Assembly: GCA_048882385.1 (NCBI GenBank)
Contig: JBHLRQ010000001.1
Coordinates: forward strand, 1 to 64,000
Direction: 5' to 3'
Length of the DNA stretch: 64,000 nucleotides
DNA from: Candidatus Thorarchaeota archaeon
GTDB lineage: Archaea > Asgardarchaeota > Thorarchaeia > Thorarchaeales > Thorarchaeaceae
Shown here: positions 27,190 through 36,183 of the stretch, piece by piece
Position numbering within the stretch: position 1 is the stretch's first letter
Layout of the letters: each line of letters begins with the position of its first letter
Translations under genes and position numbers: made by a program
Notes under the pieces: model-generated
Seen by the model: the letters and a program-made list of their open reading frames with translations, nothing else
Databases searched by the model: none
Told to the model about the DNA's origin: nothing

Positions 27190-28038
27190 TTAGGTGACTT
27201 GGCTCGACTGCTTCGTTTCAAGTGATGAAATTGCGCGCCTAGTACTGATTAGCATATTATACGTTCTCTTGAGCGCTTTTTCAGCGTCAAAGAACCACAG
27301 TGTTCTTGCAATAAGCCATTTAATCTTGATTTCTTTAAAGCTCCGTGACAATATCGAGTAGTTCTTTTTCAATTGTCCTACCACTGCATTGGAACTGTTC
27401 AATTGTTCACGAAGCTTGTGGATTTTAACCTGCATTGAATCTAGGTCCCTATTGAAAGTCTGTTCAACTGCATCACTAATGTGTTTGGTACCATCAAAAT
27501 TATCGATTTTGAGACGAGACCAGCGAAATGTATTACTCCCAATTGAACGAACAATCTTGGAGAACTCACTCGAGTCGATCAACACCTTTTCATCTTCATT
27601 CCCTATAATTCGTCTTCGTTCCTTGGATCTGAGAAGTGGAAAAAGAATCACACCAGGTCTTAATCGAATTCCAGTTGTCTTTCTCACGAGTCTTTCAACA
27701 CGTTTCTTCTGTTGCGCTGTCGGGTTCTTGAAACTGAATGAAACTAATGAATAAACACTATTGGAATAAGAACCCTTCATCTTCTCTCTGACTGTGGGTA
27801 TCTCCTTTGTTTTACTAAATGAAACAAATGATTGCTGCTGAAGGGTTGCATCGTGACTTTCTGAATATTCTTGAACGATAAACAAACCTCTCTTAATTCT
27901 TAATACACCTTGGAGACTGGAGAGCTTTTTTGATACCACCTTCAAGCCCTCAGGGGTACCAAGTAGAATTACTAGTTTTGAATCACTCTTTAGTTCGGAT
28001 TGCGCTGCGAGGATTCCATCTACACTGGCTTCGGTCAT
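27190..28038 (-). CDS. Hypothetical basic protein with a ChrB-N/PaaX-like (Cas2-type ferredoxin fold) segment and a coiled coil
   Basis: YSLVSFSF...QKKRV.R......GIRLRPGVILFP pattern; the family call is tentative. Confidence 0.55.
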   Translation of the reverse strand: MTEASVDGILAAQSELKSDSKLVILLGTPEGLKVVSKKLSSLQGVLRIKRGLFIVQEYSESHDATLQQQSFVSFSKTKEIPTVREKMKGSYSNSVYSLVSFSFKNPTAQQKKRVERLVRKTTGIRLRPGVILFPLLRSKERRRIIGNEDEKVLIDSSEFSKIVRSIGSNTFRWSRLKIDNFDGTKHISDAVEQTFNRDLDSMQVKIHKLREQLNSSNAVVGQLKKNYSILSRSFKEIKIKWLIARTLWFFDAEKALKRTYNMLISTRRAISSLETKQSSQVT

Positions 28039-28153
28039 TTTTCAACAATCAATGATTTCTCAGGCATGAACAACATGTGTTCAAGATTCCTTGGTGACAC
28101 AAGTGGGCGACTACAATAACTGTTAATATCTTTGTCTGATATGTCTAAAAACT

Positions 28154-28172
28154 CGTATTTTATCAAAATACG
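28154..28172. promoter_or_regulatory. Perfect palindrome, candidate operator
   Basis: CGTATTTT-atc-AAAATACG next to TGATATAT in a divergent intergenic region. Confidence 0.45.
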
Positions 28173-28304
28173 TTGATATATCCCTAATCTGTTAATTGGG
28201 GTCATTGAGGTCTTTTTTCAGTGTTTGAACTGATATGATGTTTGAAAAATAATCTAGACATACTTTACTCATGATGTGAAGAACTTAGTCGTGAGGTGAC
28301 ATCT

Positions 28305-28385
28305 ATGCACTTCGATGATGAAGATGTGTGGGCTGATGACGACGATGATGACTGGGACGACGACGATGACGACGAAGATTGGTAA
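28305..28385 (+). CDS. 26-aa Asp/Trp-rich acidic microprotein MHFDDEDVWADDDDDDWDDDDDDEDW
   Basis: Strong GAGGTGA SD before the ATG; mixed GAT/GAC codons argue for coding rather than a slippage repeat; below the ORF-track cutoff. Confidence 0.7.
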   Translation: MHFDDEDVWADDDDDDWDDDDDDEDW

Positions 28386-28452
28386 GATCTTGTCATCTAG
28401 TATCTCCCAATAGCAATTCGTCCGACTCTTCCCAGACATGGATGTGATTGCT

Positions 28453-28518
28453 ATGGCGAAAAAGAAACCAGCAAAGAAAACCAAAACTGAAACACCTTCT
28501 AAGAAAAAGAAGAAGTAG
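28453..28518 (+). CDS. 21-aa Lys-rich basic microprotein MAKKKPAKKTKTETPSKKKKK
   Basis: GGATGTGA SD-like site; mixed AAA/AAG codons; followed by a terminator hairpin. Alternative in-frame ATG at 28438. Confidence 0.65.
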   Translation: MAKKKPAKKTKTETPSKKKKK

Positions 28519-28524
28519 TATAAC

Positions 28525-28570
28525 GAAGTCAGGGGAAGTTAATCATACTTCCCCGATTTCCTTCTTTTTA
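28525..28570 (+). terminator. Hairpin plus T-rich tract after the microprotein pair
   Basis: GGGGAAGT (28532-39) / ACTTCCCC (28547-54), extended by GAAGTC/GATTTC, then CTTCTTTTT. Confidence 0.7.
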
Positions 28571-28668
28571 CTCAATCTATTTTTTATGTAGCCAAACAAG
28601 ATGAGAAGCTTCATTAGAAACTTGAGTTGTTTTCGAATTTCACTGGTTATTTGGAGCTAATATGAAAT

Positions 28669-30225
28669 TTGACAGAAGAAAAAAGTCGTGAGTTGACAGC
28701 TGATGAAACGGAAACAGCTCTCAGCAAAATGGTCAAACAGGGAGTCACTGTCCAAGTTAAGAATACGCTTACTGAGAGCGTCTTTCTTGTAGGCTTTGCT
28801 CTTCTTCTCCAAGCTCCAAACACTGTAATCGGAATTTTGGCTGCAATCCCTTCTGTCACTCAACTCTTACAAATTCCAGCAGTATTTTTGGTTGAGAAGC
28901 TTCGAAATAGACGACGACTGAATTTTTTTACTCAGCTAGGGAACAGACTTGGAATTCTTTTCATGGCATTAATCCCATTTATTGCGGTTGGTGAAATTGG
29001 GTTAATTCTACTAATTGGCGCCATGATTATCCAAAGCACCTTTACAGCGATTGGCGCACCCAGCTGGAATTCGTGGTTGACGGATCTAGTACCTCCAGAT
29101 CGACTAGGTCAATTCTTCTCGAGAAGGATGGCTCTCACGGGAATAATGGCAATCATCGTATCACTTCTTGGAGGGTTCTTCATTAGCAGCTGGTTGGCAA
29201 CCGCAAGTCCCGCAGACATAATATCTCAGTCATATGGGTATTCAATCATCTTCTTTGTAGCATTTCTATTTGGACTGAGTGCAATCTACTATACAATGAC
29301 TGCTCCTGAACCTCCAATGATAACTCGCCAAGAAGAAATCAGCTTTTCCCAATTGTTAGCAGAACCGTTCCAAGATGAAAATTATAGCAACTTGTTGAAA
29401 TTCTCAGCAGTATGGGCGTTAAGCACATCATTCTCAGCTCCTTTCTTCACCGTTTATTTATTGGATGCAAACATCCTTGGATTTGAGGTTGCGTTTGTTG
29501 CAGGATTAGTTGCCCTTACGCAGCTTACAAGTGTCATTTTCTACAGGTTATGGGGTCGACTCACGGATAAATTCAGCAATAAATCGATTTTACAGGTAAC
29601 CATTCCATTGTTTGTTATTGGTACATTTCTTTGGACATTCAGCTCTATTGCAATAGAATATGGTTTTCTCATTCCTCTGATAATCATAATTCACATCGTC
29701 AATGGATTTTCTGCGGCTGGTGTAAATCTAAGTACTAACAATATTGGAATGAGATTAGCCCCACGTGGACAAGCTGCATCGTATCTTGCGGCTAGAGGAT
29801 CAGTTATAGCAATTATGGGAACGATTGCGCCAATCACTGCAGGAATTCTAGCAGATCTTTTTGCCCCACATACAATCGATTTGTCGATATCTTGGCTTAT
29901 CGGTGGAGAACTCTTCACAATGATACCAGCATATCGATTGTCCGGAATTGATTTCCTATTTGTAATTTCGACTGTCATTGGAATATATGCCCTGCATCGA
30001 ATTGCACTTGTAAAAGAGCCTGGAGAGGTCAAAGAAAGAATTGTTCTTGATGCTCTAATAGCTGAAACAAGAAGAAATGTAAGAACTGTTTCAACTGTCG
30101 ATGGATTACGCCATACCTTTCAAGTACCAATCAAGGCAACGAAGAAAGGTCTGAAAAGAAAAAAAAACGAGGGGCAGCCAATACGTAAGGTATCTGACCA
30201 TGATGGAGCTCAAGGTAAAGATTGA
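28669..30225 (+). CDS. MFS transporter
   Basis: About 12 TM helices; W.SWLTDLVP..RLG.FFSRR and WGRLTDKFSNK loops. Confidence 0.9.
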   Translation: MTEEKSRELTADETETALSKMVKQGVTVQVKNTLTESVFLVGFALLLQAPNTVIGILAAIPSVTQLLQIPAVFLVEKLRNRRRLNFFTQLGNRLGILFMALIPFIAVGEIGLILLIGAMIIQSTFTAIGAPSWNSWLTDLVPPDRLGQFFSRRMALTGIMAIIVSLLGGFFISSWLATASPADIISQSYGYSIIFFVAFLFGLSAIYYTMTAPEPPMITRQEEISFSQLLAEPFQDENYSNLLKFSAVWALSTSFSAPFFTVYLLDANILGFEVAFVAGLVALTQLTSVIFYRLWGRLTDKFSNKSILQVTIPLFVIGTFLWTFSSIAIEYGFLIPLIIIIHIVNGFSAAGVNLSTNNIGMRLAPRGQAASYLAARGSVIAIMGTIAPITAGILADLFAPHTIDLSISWLIGGELFTMIPAYRLSGIDFLFVISTVIGIYALHRIALVKEPGEVKERIVLDALIAETRRNVRTVSTVDGLRHTFQVPIKATKKGLKRKKNEGQPIRKVSDHDGAQGKD

Positions 30226-30460: not shown

Positions 30461-31114
30461 CTAGCTGGAATTTCTATACAGATTCATCAAAAAAGGACGT
30501 CCATGACCAGGATAGACCATCCTTACATTTAAGCTCTGGATTTTTGCGATGCTTTCATTGAATTCGTTCAAATCGTCTACCAATGAATTTGGTTCTGGCT
30601 TTTTTGTACTGGTGAATAAATCGCCACAAAAGAGGTCACCACGGGCTGTCAATATGCCTATCGAACCTTTTGAGTGTCCTGGGAGATAGATGACCTGTGC
30701 ATCAAGTCCGTATTTTGATAGGTCTGATTCTTCATCAATCAAGATATCCGGTCTGAACCTAGTTATGTTGAAAAAAATGTTAATCATCTTCTTGAGAATC
30801 CAGTTGCCTGATTTCTTATTCCAAAACATATCACCAAATTCAACCATTCCTGAATCATAATGATGCATGGCTATCTCAGCGTCGTATTTTTCTCGAAGAT
30901 ACACACAATTTCCTGTATGATCAAAGTCACCATGGGTCAAGAGTATTAGATTGAAATTTTCAGGGTCACATCCTGCAATTGTAAGCTCTTGTTCAAGTTT
31001 GCTTCTTACAGATTTCCTTCCTGTGTCAATTAAGACAAAACCGCTGTCTGTTTCAAGAAGGTAGCAATTTCCAGTAAATCCTCCAAAAATGATTGTTTTG
31101 ATATCTTTAATCAT
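30461..31114 (-). CDS. MBL-fold metallo-hydrolase
   Basis: THGDFDHTG, PGHSKGS, GD and YPGHG motifs. Confidence 0.92.
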   Translation of the reverse strand: MIKDIKTIIFGGFTGNCYLLETDSGFVLIDTGRKSVRSKLEQELTIAGCDPENFNLILLTHGDFDHTGNCVYLREKYDAEIAMHHYDSGMVEFGDMFWNKKSGNWILKKMINIFFNITRFRPDILIDEESDLSKYGLDAQVIYLPGHSKGSIGILTARGDLFCGDLFTSTKKPEPNSLVDDLNEFNESIAKIQSLNVRMVYPGHGRPFLMNLYRNSS

Positions 31115-31260
31115 ATAGATTCATGTTTCTCAATTATTTTGACAAATGAACATTGTGATTTCCACTATTTCCAAATACAAAATAATGTTCAAAATAAATT
31201 CCATGGAAACGAAAACGAGTAGGAAACGAATTCAGAGTCATGTTAGCTGTTTTGTGTCAG

Positions 31261-31398
31261 TTAGTCTTCTACAGTTTCCCAAGCGTTGCTACAGCGTGGA
31301 CAACGCCACTTCTTCCTATACTTGCCGCTCCCAAACATTTCCTTCCTAACAAGAGCGACCTCTTTGAATCCACAGCGAGTACAAACCACTTCAGCCAT
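31261..31398 (-). CDS. 45-aa zinc-ribbon microprotein MAEVVCTRCG...WRCPRCSNAWETVED
   Basis: Manual translation; two CxxC motifs; divergent from rps3ae; missed by the ORF track. Confidence 0.8.
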   Translation of the reverse strand: MAEVVCTRCGFKEVALVRKEMFGSGKYRKKWRCPRCSNAWETVED

Positions 31399-31572
31399 TG
31401 TGACGCATCTCAGCCTTTCTGGAACATGATTGTCATATCTAGTTTTGCTTGTTGTATCAGACTATGTCACAATGTTTTTATTAGACTCGTTAGTTGTCGG
31501 CGCGTTTCTGTGGCCAATGGCTATAGAGCAATTCATGATTCTCTGGACTTCCAGTGTGAGTGTGATACTCAA

Positions 31573-32226
31573 ATGTCATCAAAAAGCAGACAAGCAGCAG
31601 CAAGGACCAAGGACAAATGGAGAGATAAAGTCTGGTATCAAATCCTTGCTCCGGATTATTTCGATAACAAGGAAATAGGCACTACTCCAGCGGGTAGTCC
31701 TGATCTGCTGATTGGTAGAACTGTTCAACCAACTCTTTATGACCTGACTGGAGATTTTGACAAGATTCATGTCAAGCTTAAGTTCAAGATACTGGAAGTA
31801 ACAGGAACACAGGCAAAGACTGTGTTCTATGGACATGAATGGAGCTCGGACTATCTTAGAGGTCTAGTCAGGAGAGGAACATCCAGAATAGATTGGATTG
31901 GACCGATTCTAACAAAAGACGATTATTTGATGAGAATTTCAGTCATAGTGTTCACTAATACACGCTCAAAGACGAGTCAAGAACATGCTGTTAGAAAAGG
32001 CATTGAGAAGATTATTAGAAAACATGCCAAAAAACACACTTTCGACGAGCTGGTTACAAAGGTCATTCTTGGCGATTTGGCGGGAGATGTCCACGAAGAG
32101 GTAAGGCAGATTATGCCTATCCGTGAGTGTGAGATTCGTAAGAGTAAGGTGCTCAAAGGTCCAGAAGAAGTGAAGATTCGAAGGGCTCGACTCAGAAGAG
32201 GATCAGCTACTGAGAAAGAAGCATAG
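31573..32226 (+). CDS. rps3ae: 30S ribosomal protein eS1 (S3Ae)
   Basis: KDKW..K.WY.ILAP, DYLR.LVRRGTSRID and EIRKSKVL; true start 31573 rather than 31240. Confidence 0.96.
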   Translation: MSSKSRQAAARTKDKWRDKVWYQILAPDYFDNKEIGTTPAGSPDLLIGRTVQPTLYDLTGDFDKIHVKLKFKILEVTGTQAKTVFYGHEWSSDYLRGLVRRGTSRIDWIGPILTKDDYLMRISVIVFTNTRSKTSQEHAVRKGIEKIIRKHAKKHTFDELVTKVILGDLAGDVHEEVRQIMPIRECEIRKSKVLKGPEEVKIRRARLRRGSATEKEA

Positions 32227-34834: not shown

Positions 34835-36183
34835 TTCTTCCTCTCACTCAAATCCTTAATCAATTTGAGGACCTTCATTCTTTCTTCTGAACTCATTCCC
34901 TCAAATTTAACCGATTGTGTGGAGGTTGCTGTTGAGGTCAGTTTAAGATTCTCTACACTTTGCAGTATATGATTTGCATTGACATTTCTATAGGTCCAGA
35001 TGATTACACTCGATTTCTCGTTACTAATCGCCAATGGACGTTCAGGGTTTACAATCTCGTTCTGAAGAATAATCCGACCCACATCTGTTAGAAGCATATC
35101 TTGGGTACCTGACAGATCTACTATTGTACTGTCTTCACTTGAAGTTGCTTTCATTTTCGTTTCTAGTCTCTGTATTACTGAAATGACATCCTTACTGTGA
35201 CTGAGGTAGGTGTCTATTGCTGTACGTAAAGCCCTGCCTCGATCCCCAATCCAAATACTCATTGCGGCACCCAATTCTTGACGAGCCCAAGCTGTGTCTG
35301 CGATTGCTTCAAGTCCTGAAAGATGTCTTAACGGACGATTCTCATTCTCCCGGGTCAAAATGTAATCAGTTCCAAAGGTATAGGGAATTATGCCAGGTCC
35401 TACTTTCTCTAGTAGATGTGATGTTAGATGTTGTGTGAAGTGTTGGATTTCTGAATTGCTCAAAGAACTCATTGGAGACCGAAGTTTTGTGATAGGTATG
35501 TCGGCTTCGTTTAGAAATGCATCGCAGGCTTTCTGATTTCCACCAATACCTTGGATATATGGTCGAATGCTAAAGAGTAGTACTTCATCAATCGGTAGAA
35601 AACTGAAACCAAAGAGTCTGATTCCTCCTCGTTTTTCTAGAAGATTCTTGTCAATAGCTTGTTTGACAATTGCTTTGTGTGCTGTACTTGGTTTCTTTGG
35701 GGATGCATGGGATTTATTATAAATGAGTGTGGCTGATGCTGCTATTTGTAGGTCATAGTCACTCACAGTCAAGTGTTCCTGTGCAAGAATATAGGCAGAT
35801 ATGGGTACAGTATGTTCATCTCCGAGTGTTATTGAGTTCACTTGTTCTGATTCCGAGGGTCCTCCTACAAAAACTGGATATCCCTTCCCTTTTCGAAGTT
35901 TCTTTGTTCCCACAGTTTCGATACCTACGAAAATAATTGATGATGTAGCATGTTCGTTCCTAATTGCGTTGATTGAATCTATGCTCATGATTGGTTGTTC
36001 AAACGAAACATGGAATGTTCCACTAGATTTCATGATTGCTCTGCAGAGTAGTGCTGTTGCTAGCGTGGATTGAGGATTTGGAGCAGAAGCCAGAAGAACA
36101 TGTTCACCACTCTGTAAAGAGATATTGTCACATTGACCTTTTAGTGTCCGAAGAGATGGAGAGCTACTTGTCTTCTTACTCAT
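34831..36183 (-). CDS. RecJ/DHH-family protein with degenerate catalytic motifs
   Basis: Conserved position between rps15 and pcc1; G..LFG....P....L...I.PYI.G and IGDR..AL patterns; no DADG or DHH motif. Confidence 0.7.
   Translation of the reverse strand: MSKKTSSSPSLRTLKGQCDNISLQSGEHVLLASAPNPQSTLATALLCRAIMKSSGTFHVSFEQPIMSIDSINAIRNEHATSSIIFVGIETVGTKKLRKGKGYPVFVGGPSESEQVNSITLGDEHTVPISAYILAQEHLTVSDYDLQIAASATLIYNKSHASPKKPSTAHKAIVKQAIDKNLLEKRGGIRLFGFSFLPIDEVLLFSIRPYIQGIGGNQKACDAFLNEADIPITKLRSPMSSLSNSEIQHFTQHLTSHLLEKVGPGIIPYTFGTDYILTRENENRPLRHLSGLEAIADTAWARQELGAAMSIWIGDRGRALRTAIDTYLSHSKDVISVIQRLETKMKATSSEDSTIVDLSGTQDMLLTDVGRIILQNEIVNPERPLAISNEKSSVIIWTYRNVNANHILQSVENLKLTSTATSTQSVKFEGMSSEERMKVLKLIKDLSERKK

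Follow-up and report, generated by a model that had tools for sequence, protein, structure and literature searches.

The stretch of DNA considered here, referred to as the window, comprises 64,000 nucleotides (nt) from a Thorarchaeota metagenome-assembled genome (3.7 Mb in 256 contigs) and contains two very small co-oriented open reading frames (ORFs) whose predicted products carry opposite charges. ORF1 encodes a 26-residue Trp-acidic peptide, MHFDDEDVWADDDDDDWDDDDDDEDW, in which 16 Asp and two Glu account for 18 of the residues and Trp occupies positions 9, 17 and 26. ORF2 encodes a 21-residue peptide, MAKKKPAKKTKTETPSKKKKK, of which 11 residues are Lys. The gene for a basic protein, p282, diverges from ORF1, and a hairpin followed by a T-rich tract lies on the 3' side of ORF2 (Table 1). 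An earlier description made from the letters of the DNA alone (the sequence-only reading) had interpreted the pair as a hidden operon of two microproteins, and it is borne out in its main points. The oppositely charged ORFs lie where it placed them and have the lengths and compositions it gave, both Shine-Dalgarno (SD)-like sites (GAGGTGA and GGATGTGAT) are present and recur in relatives, the closing hairpin has an 8-bp stem with a folding energy of -19.8 kcal/mol (z -4.2 against shuffled sequences), and synonymous codons (GAT with GAC, AAA with AAG) are mixed in ORF1 and ORF2, neither of which is a simple repeat. Comparison with relatives shows the ORFs, the SD sites and the 3' hairpin to be conserved over three genera, and points to a real, vertically inherited three-gene module of Thorarchaeota in which p282 is divergent from a bicistronic ORF1-ORF2 unit closed by the hairpin and T-tract. 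At the level of conserved coding potential the finding is very probably real, and ORF1 and ORF2 are probably genuine microproteins.

Table 1. Features of the p282-ORF1-ORF2 locus, in window coordinates; distances with a minus sign are counted from the ORF1 ATG
Feature	Position	Strand	Remarks
p282, basic 282-residue protein	27190..28038	-	Divergent from ORF1; net charge +23, pI 10.2
GTGACAC island	28094-28100		At -211/-209 in 26/27 loci
CTGTTAATATCTTTGTCT island, TAATAT(C/T)TTTGT	28120-28137		TAATAT core at about -182
TTGATA island	28173-28179	+	At -132/-130 in 25/27 loci; columns invariant in the alignment; putative TATA-like role
TAGACAT.TTTTACTC island	28255-28270	+	35-50 nt upstream of ORF1; TTTAC invariant in 21/21, at -41/-39
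SD-like site of ORF1, GAGGTGA	28293-28299	+	5-nt gap to ATG; GAGGTG invariant in 27/27 loci
ORF1, 26-residue Trp-acidic microprotein	ATG 28305, stop TAA 28383-28385	+	Net charge about -18
Possible 6-bp stem, ATAGCA (28410-28415)/UGCUAU (28449-28454)	28410-28454	+	Weak; would mask the ORF2 start codon
SD-like site of ORF2, GGATGTGAT	28440-28448	+	4-nt gap to ATG
ORF2, 21-residue poly-Lys microprotein	ATG 28453, stop TAG 28516-28518	+	Net charge about +10
3' hairpin and T-rich tract	28532-28573	+	Stem of 8 bp and loop of 7 nt at 28532-28554; terminator-like

Conservation and coding potential of ORF1

A blastn comparison with 40 relatives recovers the whole stretch from 28104 to 28570 at 69-78% identity in genomes of the same genus. 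The orthologous, or type-A, set used throughout consists of 27 loci, one per genome (L001-L016, L018, L033, L038, L046, L052, L054-L058 and L061). It excludes the paralogs L017, L042 and L060, L053 at a contig end, a false match inside a long ORF (L059), and repeat fetches of the same places (L019-L032, L034-L037, L039-L041, L043-L045 and L047-L051). Gene order and the p282 neighbour are kept in these relatives, with ORF1 present in all 27 loci and ORF2 in 21-23. ORF1 is intact in every one of them, across three genera and in the context GAGGTG-N6-7-ATG, and its indels are multiples of three. Its start codon, SD site, frame, stop and Trp codons are all retained, though p282 is only 40% identical between the genera. 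The peptides follow the consensus M-[HVIYCR]-F-D-D-[DE]-D-x-W, then an acidic run, Trp, a further acidic run and an aromatic residue at or near the C-terminus, which in one genus reads ...W-E-D-D-D-E. The reading frame opens three residues ahead of the acidic run, which begins at codon 4, and has an SD site and start codon of its own in each locus.

The pattern of substitution is of the coding type, with pairwise differences between ORF1 orthologs of 0.082, 0.11 and 0.397 at codon positions 1, 2 and 3. The third base of the GAN codons is a pyrimidine in 422 of 487 ORF1 codons (T 213, C 209, A 62, G 3; 87%), against 176 of 353 (50%) in seven long ORFs of the window. An antisense poly-Ser frame has its wobble position in common with ORF1, and the GAN third base tells the two apart: the TCN codons of such a frame would not need a pyrimidine there, so the bias argues that Asp itself has been selected. 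ORF1 is accordingly, on codon usage, under Asp-specific coding constraint. The even mixture of T and C also argues against replication slippage as the source of the run. Mean pairwise identity within the core genus is 0.80 for ORF1 and 0.82 for ORF2, compared with 0.67 for the spacer and 0.62 for the 3' flank. DNA contigs from four sequencing runs include a near-identical strain with four differences upstream and none in the ORFs; this comparison is uninformative overall, as the acidic repeat drew unrelated contigs.

Starts led by an SD site are in use in the genome. Of its 1969 long ORFs, only 55 have GAGGTG within 20 nt upstream and 662 have a 4-mer SD core upstream; the 3' end of the 16S rRNA, sought for its anti-SD sequence, is absent from the assembly.

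The simplest alternative is that neither ORF is a gene and that both are chance reading frames in low-complexity intergenic DNA. Six micro-ORF sequences, the ORF1 and ORF2 peptides among them, are absent from about 15 billion predicted proteins in an exact look-up, as would be expected of chance frames. A homolog search with a 47-residue family member returned one candidate and scored none. Open frames by themselves are uninformative, five of the six frames of a GAY repeat being open. Chance explains neither the retention of start, SD site, frame, stop and Trp codons in 27 of 27 loci across genera nor the Asp-specific third bases, nor the presence of a micro-ORF in all 21 testable loci that were retrieved through p282 (see below). 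As far as conservation can show, this alternative is refuted, and it is given hardly any weight.

ORF2, the spacer and the 3' end of the unit

ORF2 is less constant than its neighbour. A Lys-rich ORF2 (at least 30% Lys) follows ORF1 after 52-98 nt in 21 of the 27 loci, and a variant with less Lys that begins MGSKKP is found in two more (L015, L016). In the remaining four (L012, L013, L014 and L046) ORF2 has decayed next to an intact ORF1, and three of these, L012, L014 and L046 (relatives G005, G010 and G366), belong to one subclade and retain a startless 3' remnant, ...TPSKKKK, with ORF1 and p282 intact. Where ORF2 is present, its two ends are conserved, with MAKKKPAKK or MGSKKP at the N-terminus and a run of Lys at the C-terminus, and the middle is variable. 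Pairwise differences at codon positions 1, 2 and 3 are 0.259, 0.176 and 0.434. Its SD-like site is matched in other genera by a GGAG- or GGTG-type element 8-12 nt ahead of the start codon.

Between the two ORFs, RNAalifold applied to 12 loci predicts a spacer stem whose pairs are kept in 9-12 of the 12 sequences, and two of the 20 predicted pairs covary. Downstream of ORF2, hairpins that differ in sequence occur in the other genomes as well, with z-scores of -2.7 to -6.2 in 10 of the 12 loci folded, and the hairpin and T-tract likely mark the end of the transcript. The long gene beyond is not conserved: here and in a single genome from a different genus it encodes a major facilitator superfamily (MFS) transporter, and at most loci its place is taken by a convergent gene. 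An Rfam search of 27900-28800 at E <= 1 gave four matches, all far below their gathering scores.

The opposite charges of the two peptides raise the possibility of a toxin-antidote or antimicrobial pair, in which a cationic ORF2 product would harm membranes or bind nucleic acid and the ORF1 product would neutralise it stoichiometrically. The genes appear to be co-transcribed, with the putative antidote first. ORF2 is the sole ORF of its type in the genome and never occurs without ORF1, and the four decayed loci have lost the putative toxin and kept the antidote. The locus is at the same time single-copy, syntenic and vertically inherited over three genera, and neither patchy, mobile nor multi-copy as a type II toxin-antitoxin pair would be, the ORF2 product has no hydrophobic or amphipathic segment, and paralogs of ORF1 exist that have no basic partner (see below). 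Positive evidence from toxin or antitoxin families is lacking, no search of a toxin-antitoxin or defence library having been made, and peptides this short and low in complexity are poorly suited to profile libraries. A toxin-antidote function is for these reasons considered improbable. A related suggestion of the sequence-only reading, that of a polycation with its acidic chaperone or antidote, needs to be amended because ORF1 outlives ORF2. ORF2 has decayed in four of 27 loci, the ORF1 paralogs stand alone, and the invariant partner of ORF1 is p282, which that reading had overlooked.

Elsewhere in the genome, a 19-residue basic micro-ORF, MGKTDKQKKQQKPNQKPKK, starts at position 3533 of contig C62 on the plus strand; its strong SD context, GAGAGGTGACATTA, is similar to that of ORF1.

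The intergenic region shared with p282

The 215 nt upstream of ORF1 (28090-28304) align without a gap in 21 loci from three genera, between which p282 itself is only about 40% identical. Four islands stand at fixed distances from the ORF1 start codon (Table 1), with GTGACAC and TAATATCTTTGTCT among those within the 28090-28300 fragment, and GAGGTG, at -12, is the fifth. Such rigid spacing over 28090-28304 is unusual in non-coding DNA. RNAalifold finds no pairs in these 215 nt, no frame is open throughout, and there is no three-base periodicity. The islands between 28094 and 28137 are candidate operator and TATA-like elements of divergent promoters, and we infer that the region as a whole is organised as divergent promoters with an operator, all strictly spaced.

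The divergent neighbour p282

The protein p282 contains 51 Lys and Arg against 28 Asp and Glu, and the pI of its central third reaches 11.2. It adjoins ORF1 in all type-A loci (40-64% identity in tblastn), its close relatives being found in Candidatus Thorarchaeota, including SMTZ1-45 and AB_25. In three further genera, homologs with 30-36% identity adjoin Trp-acidic micro-ORFs, as does a weak match in another family. The association also holds when approached from the other side. A profile of p282 alone, with the micro-ORFs left unused, retrieved 25 metagenome loci, a sample that is not fully independent, as a few records are contigs already seen (SMTZ1-45 and a 243-kb contig). A divergent Trp-acidic micro-ORF is present in all 21 loci with at least 400 nt upstream of p282, the other four being too short; where 260 nt of sequence are available downstream, ORF2 is found in 16 of 20 loci. 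The p282 family is a small one, with 52 representatives at E <= 1e-3 among 1.84 billion.

The AlphaFold2 model of p282 (pLDDT 86, pTM 0.81) consists of a small alpha/beta unit (residues 20-76), a ferredoxin-like central domain and a C-terminal three-helix bundle. The top Foldseek match is PaaX (8a39; E 1.6e-3, probability 0.85, TM 0.24), with the PaaX-like Rv0674 and a Cas2 chain ranking lower. Among 20 distant relatives of p282 compared with Pfam, one (P0159) passes the threshold of PaaX_M, the 'central Cas2-like domain' (33.2 bits, cut-off 24), one has a weak PaaX_M and one a weak ChrB_N match, and the remaining 17 have no match of the PaaX type. ChrB_N also appears as a low-scoring lead (0.76) in a protein atlas. 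A wide structural search returned only spectrin-like three-helix bundles, which cover residues 187-282, and barely probed the N-terminal unit. With moderate confidence, p282 can be regarded as a distantly PaaX_M/Cas2-like protein of the regulator type. Its model may share with regulators of the PaaX/ChrB_N type a Cas2-like domain at the centre, with helices C-terminal to it, and its gene is divergent from the putative target; p282 differs in falling below all Pfam thresholds, and no winged-helix N-terminal domain was recognised in searches that barely probed this part.

A lineage-restricted family of Trp-acidic micro-ORFs

A search of 400 genomes of the phylum with a profile of the ORF1 alignment found only nine and missed known orthologs, and exact DNA patterns were substituted because the profile is too insensitive. 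The pattern of the ORF1 5' end occurs in 28 of the 400, all of one GTDB family; with the genome itself set aside, these are 27 of 85 in the family and none of 315 outside it. The reversed pattern, used as a control, has no matches; of the 28, G390 does not count as a micro-ORF, its match being internal to a long ORF. A second pattern, made up of four Asp codons, Trp and a stop, with TGG also allowed at the stop position, occurs in 52 of the 400 genomes (46 of 85 in the family and five of 315 outside it, two of which read TGG), and its control matches in three genomes.

Thirty loci of the second pattern were examined, and two outside the family, with TGG in place of the stop, were left unanalysed. 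About 15 contain further Trp-acidic micro-ORFs of 25-51 residues with SD-like sites; their hosts include members of at least five additional genera and two genomes from a different family, and in no case does a basic ORF follow these further micro-ORFs within 260 nt. The others comprise five type-A ORF1 genes, four genes for a Cys-rich protein of about 100 residues, two TATA-binding protein (TBP) genes, an open frame that is not acidic (L071) and an acidic open frame without a start codon. ORF1 is by these comparisons a member of a lineage-restricted family of Trp-acidic micro-ORFs of 25-51 residues.

A second member of the family is present in the same genome, where MFQEDDDVWEDDEEDWDDDEWDDNDW is read from a TTG start after AAGGTGGA (contig C40, 15848-15949, corresponding to L093:2049-2150 on the minus strand). 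It is the last gene of a co-oriented row of MarR, a metallo-beta-lactamase (MBL)-fold hydrolase and the micro-ORF, faces a convergent gene and has no poly-Lys partner. The same row is found in all six loci of this type, termed type B (L017, L042, L060, L081, L089 and L093). The main argument that the family acts in trans is drawn from this arrangement, since the last gene of an operon cannot encode a leader.

Bacterial mgtL is an acidic-run leader for Mg2+ sensing, and ORF1 could be thought to act likewise in cis: ribosomes translating its acidic run would become unstable or stall, and the expression of ORF2 or of downstream genes would in this way be tuned to Mg2+, polyamines or charged tRNA, the peptide itself being functionless. 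Consecutive acidic residues at the N-terminus are described as aborting translation in bacterial, yeast and human systems (PMC9718836, PMC12673854), and ORF1, a short frame with its acidic run close to the start codon, resembles what is said there of intrinsic ribosome destabilisation. The possible stem over the ORF2 start codon and the MFS transporter gene found after the unit here and in one genome of another genus would suit such a role. The ORF1-ORF2 unit differs from acidic-run leaders in apparently having its own terminator, the strong hairpin and T-tract straight after ORF2. The long downstream gene is not conserved, MFS transporters being found in two lineages only, and the type-B paralogs end their operons with no co-oriented gene beyond them. 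No convincing conserved RNA switch is evident either, the 5' region having no predicted pairs and the spacer two covarying pairs of 20. A pure acidic-run sensor, moreover, has need neither of Asp in preference to Glu nor of conserved Trp positions and an aromatic C-terminus, all of which ORF1 maintains. The leader explanation is regarded as unlikely, if still worth keeping in mind.

The motif is not confined to free-standing peptides. The TBP of the genome (contig C22, about 34949-35560) has an acidic C-terminal tail, ...EGEDWGLEDYEEGEW, that contains Trp residues and closes with one, and the TBPs of two relatives (L087, L088) terminate in ...EVDDDDW. A literature search on acidic tails of archaeal TBP returned none. 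The Cys-rich protein, of 101 residues (L092:2078-2383 on the plus strand, contig C86), has an N-terminal module with eight Cys, joined by a Lys-rich linker to a long acidic tail, ...DDDDDFGFDDDDW. Pfam has no match for it, its orthologs in four relatives retain an LSDLPPER motif and the terminal Trp, and its gene neighbours an EAP30/Vps36-like (ESCRT-II-type) gene and a class I aminoacyl-tRNA synthetase-like ORF. Across the genome, at least three Asp or Glu followed by a terminal Trp or Phe are found only in ORF1 and in this Cys-rich protein. These occurrences show that acidic runs capped by a terminal Trp recur in the lineage.

These neighbourhoods also bear on the idea that ORF1 binds metal or mineral, in which case its poly-Asp product would buffer or deliver Ca2+, Mg2+, Zn2+ or Fe and ORF2 would be unrelated. 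The 16 Asp among 26 residues, the position of the type-B paralogs after an MBL-fold gene, another such gene at 30461-31114 of the window and the similar tail of the Cys-rich protein can all be cited for it. The case is one of composition alone and leaves the conserved Trp, the link to p282 and the co-conserved poly-Lys partner unexplained, and the ORF1 product has neither a signal peptide nor a membrane anchor. The chance of a metal-binding role is rated as small.

Comparison with known acidic and basic proteins

DSS1/Sem1 is a disordered protein of about 70-90 residues with two acidic-aromatic sites and a C-terminal helix, which docks on basic grooves and can mimic DNA. In WASP-family proteins, an acidic Trp motif follows the WH2 (V) and central (C) elements of the VCA region within a larger protein. 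The sequence-only reading had likened ORF1 to both, and with the host an Asgard archaeon, as that reading had supposed, it is tempting to see in ORF1 a homolog of one of these eukaryotic Trp-acidic modules, passed on from Asgard archaea. The resemblance to DSS1/Sem1 lies in small size, acidic runs and spaced Trp. At 26 residues ORF1 has about one third of the length of DSS1, is acidic to its last residue and lacks a C-terminal helix, and it leaves no room for the WH2 and C elements of the WASP family. At E <= 10, none of 12 ORF1-family peptides matches DSS1_SEM1 or another family of relevance in Pfam, and PF05160 has no match at this threshold in the whole genome, with the proviso that the composition filters of HMMER may hide weak matches. 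The family is, in addition, not spread across Asgard lineages, the exact 5' pattern being confined to one archaeal family. Homology to either module is very improbable, and the likeness does not hold up as evidence of descent.

The comparison of ORF2 with histone H1 meets a similar end, as Pfam yields nothing at E <= 10 for four ORF2 variants and a globular H1 domain is lacking. At 21 residues the likeness to H1 tails is compositional only, and homology of ORF2 to H1 is not supported. Asgard archaea are described as having tailed histones with Lys-rich N-terminal tails of 16-32 residues and a pI of about 10.5 (bioRxiv 10.64898/2026.07.02.735847), which ORF2 resembles in composition. The idea of a histone tail was also set aside, the single histone found in the genome being untailed and without a Lys-rich tail.

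The closest functional analogy is offered by prothymosin-alpha and histone H1, which are reported to form a high-affinity complex in which both partners remain disordered (PMC7661507). In both systems an extremely acidic partner is matched with an extremely Lys-rich one, and a charge-driven binding that requires no folding would be expected of ORF1 and ORF2 by analogy. There is no sequence homology between the two pairs, and the archaeal peptides have 26 and 21 residues instead of about 110 and 200. They would further differ in being encoded in one operon, in the conserved Trp anchors of ORF1 and in that ORF1 outlasts ORF2.

Bacterial single-stranded DNA-binding protein (SSB) and phage T7 gp2.5 possess acidic C-terminal tails with a final aromatic residue. 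ORF1 shares with these proteins, and with the archaeal TBP tails, the acidic run with an aromatic residue at the very C-terminus; the difference is that the 'tail' of ORF1 is a free-standing gene product with no folded protein attached. A full-text search for microproteins of Asgard archaea, of which titles and the openings of abstracts were covered, found nothing on these genes.

A possible function of the module

It is tentatively proposed, at somewhat less than an even chance, that the ORF1 product is a trans-acting disordered polyanionic decoy or ligand that targets the basic p282 and is buffered by the co-transcribed ORF2 product. ORF1 would act as a polyanion resembling nucleic acid, with the spaced Trp and the aromatic C-terminus as anchors, and would dock on basic surfaces, foremost that of p282, modulating what p282 binds, which would probably be the DNA of the conserved shared promoter region. 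The polycationic ORF2 product, encoded on the same transcript, would act as a counterweight, either titrating ORF1 through a disordered complex held together by charge or competing with it for nucleic acid.

Several observations weigh against this proposal. The divergent synteny fits equally well a plain regulation of ORF1-ORF2 by p282 without any physical contact between the products. The interaction between ORF1 and ORF2 cannot be the essential function because ORF2 has decayed in four of 27 loci where ORF1 persists. The protein p282 has no Pfam or NCBIfam match and no DNA-binding domain was identified in it, and its link to PaaX consists of one of 20 distant relatives past the cut-off and the weak Foldseek match (TM 0.24). 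Low-complexity sequences may, besides, seem conserved through their composition.

A bolder variant, to which only a slim chance is assigned, holds that free-standing 'acidic-aromatic tail' micropeptides are genetically encoded ligands of the transcription proteins of Thorarchaeota. It draws on the occurrence of the same type of motif at the ends of TBP and of the Cys-rich protein, and on the position of the micro-ORFs, which is always beside regulator-type genes (p282 or MarR). Characterised relatives of PaaX- and MarR-type regulators sense aromatic anions. ORF1 might mimic such an anion or the tail of TBP and thereby switch the neighbouring regulator or the basal transcription machinery, with ORF2 as a buffer. 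If true, this would represent a prokaryotic forerunner of the chemistry of acidic-aromatic activation domains.

Whichever function applies, these are conserved small genes that had so far been missed and left unannotated, and the length cut-offs of gene callers hide genes of this kind. In its fixed trio with a basic regulator-like protein, the locus offers a small and tractable system for the study of disordered polyanionic and polycationic peptides in a prokaryote. It may also help to show if Asgard archaea were already making use of acidic-aromatic docking motifs, which in eukaryotes are widespread in transcription, trafficking and chromatin.

A separate observation concerns a gene further along the window. 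The ORF for ribosomal protein S3Ae at 31240-32226 on the plus strand has 328 codons and its Pfam domain covers residues 120-308, which suggests an N-terminal extension of about 120 residues or a mis-set start.

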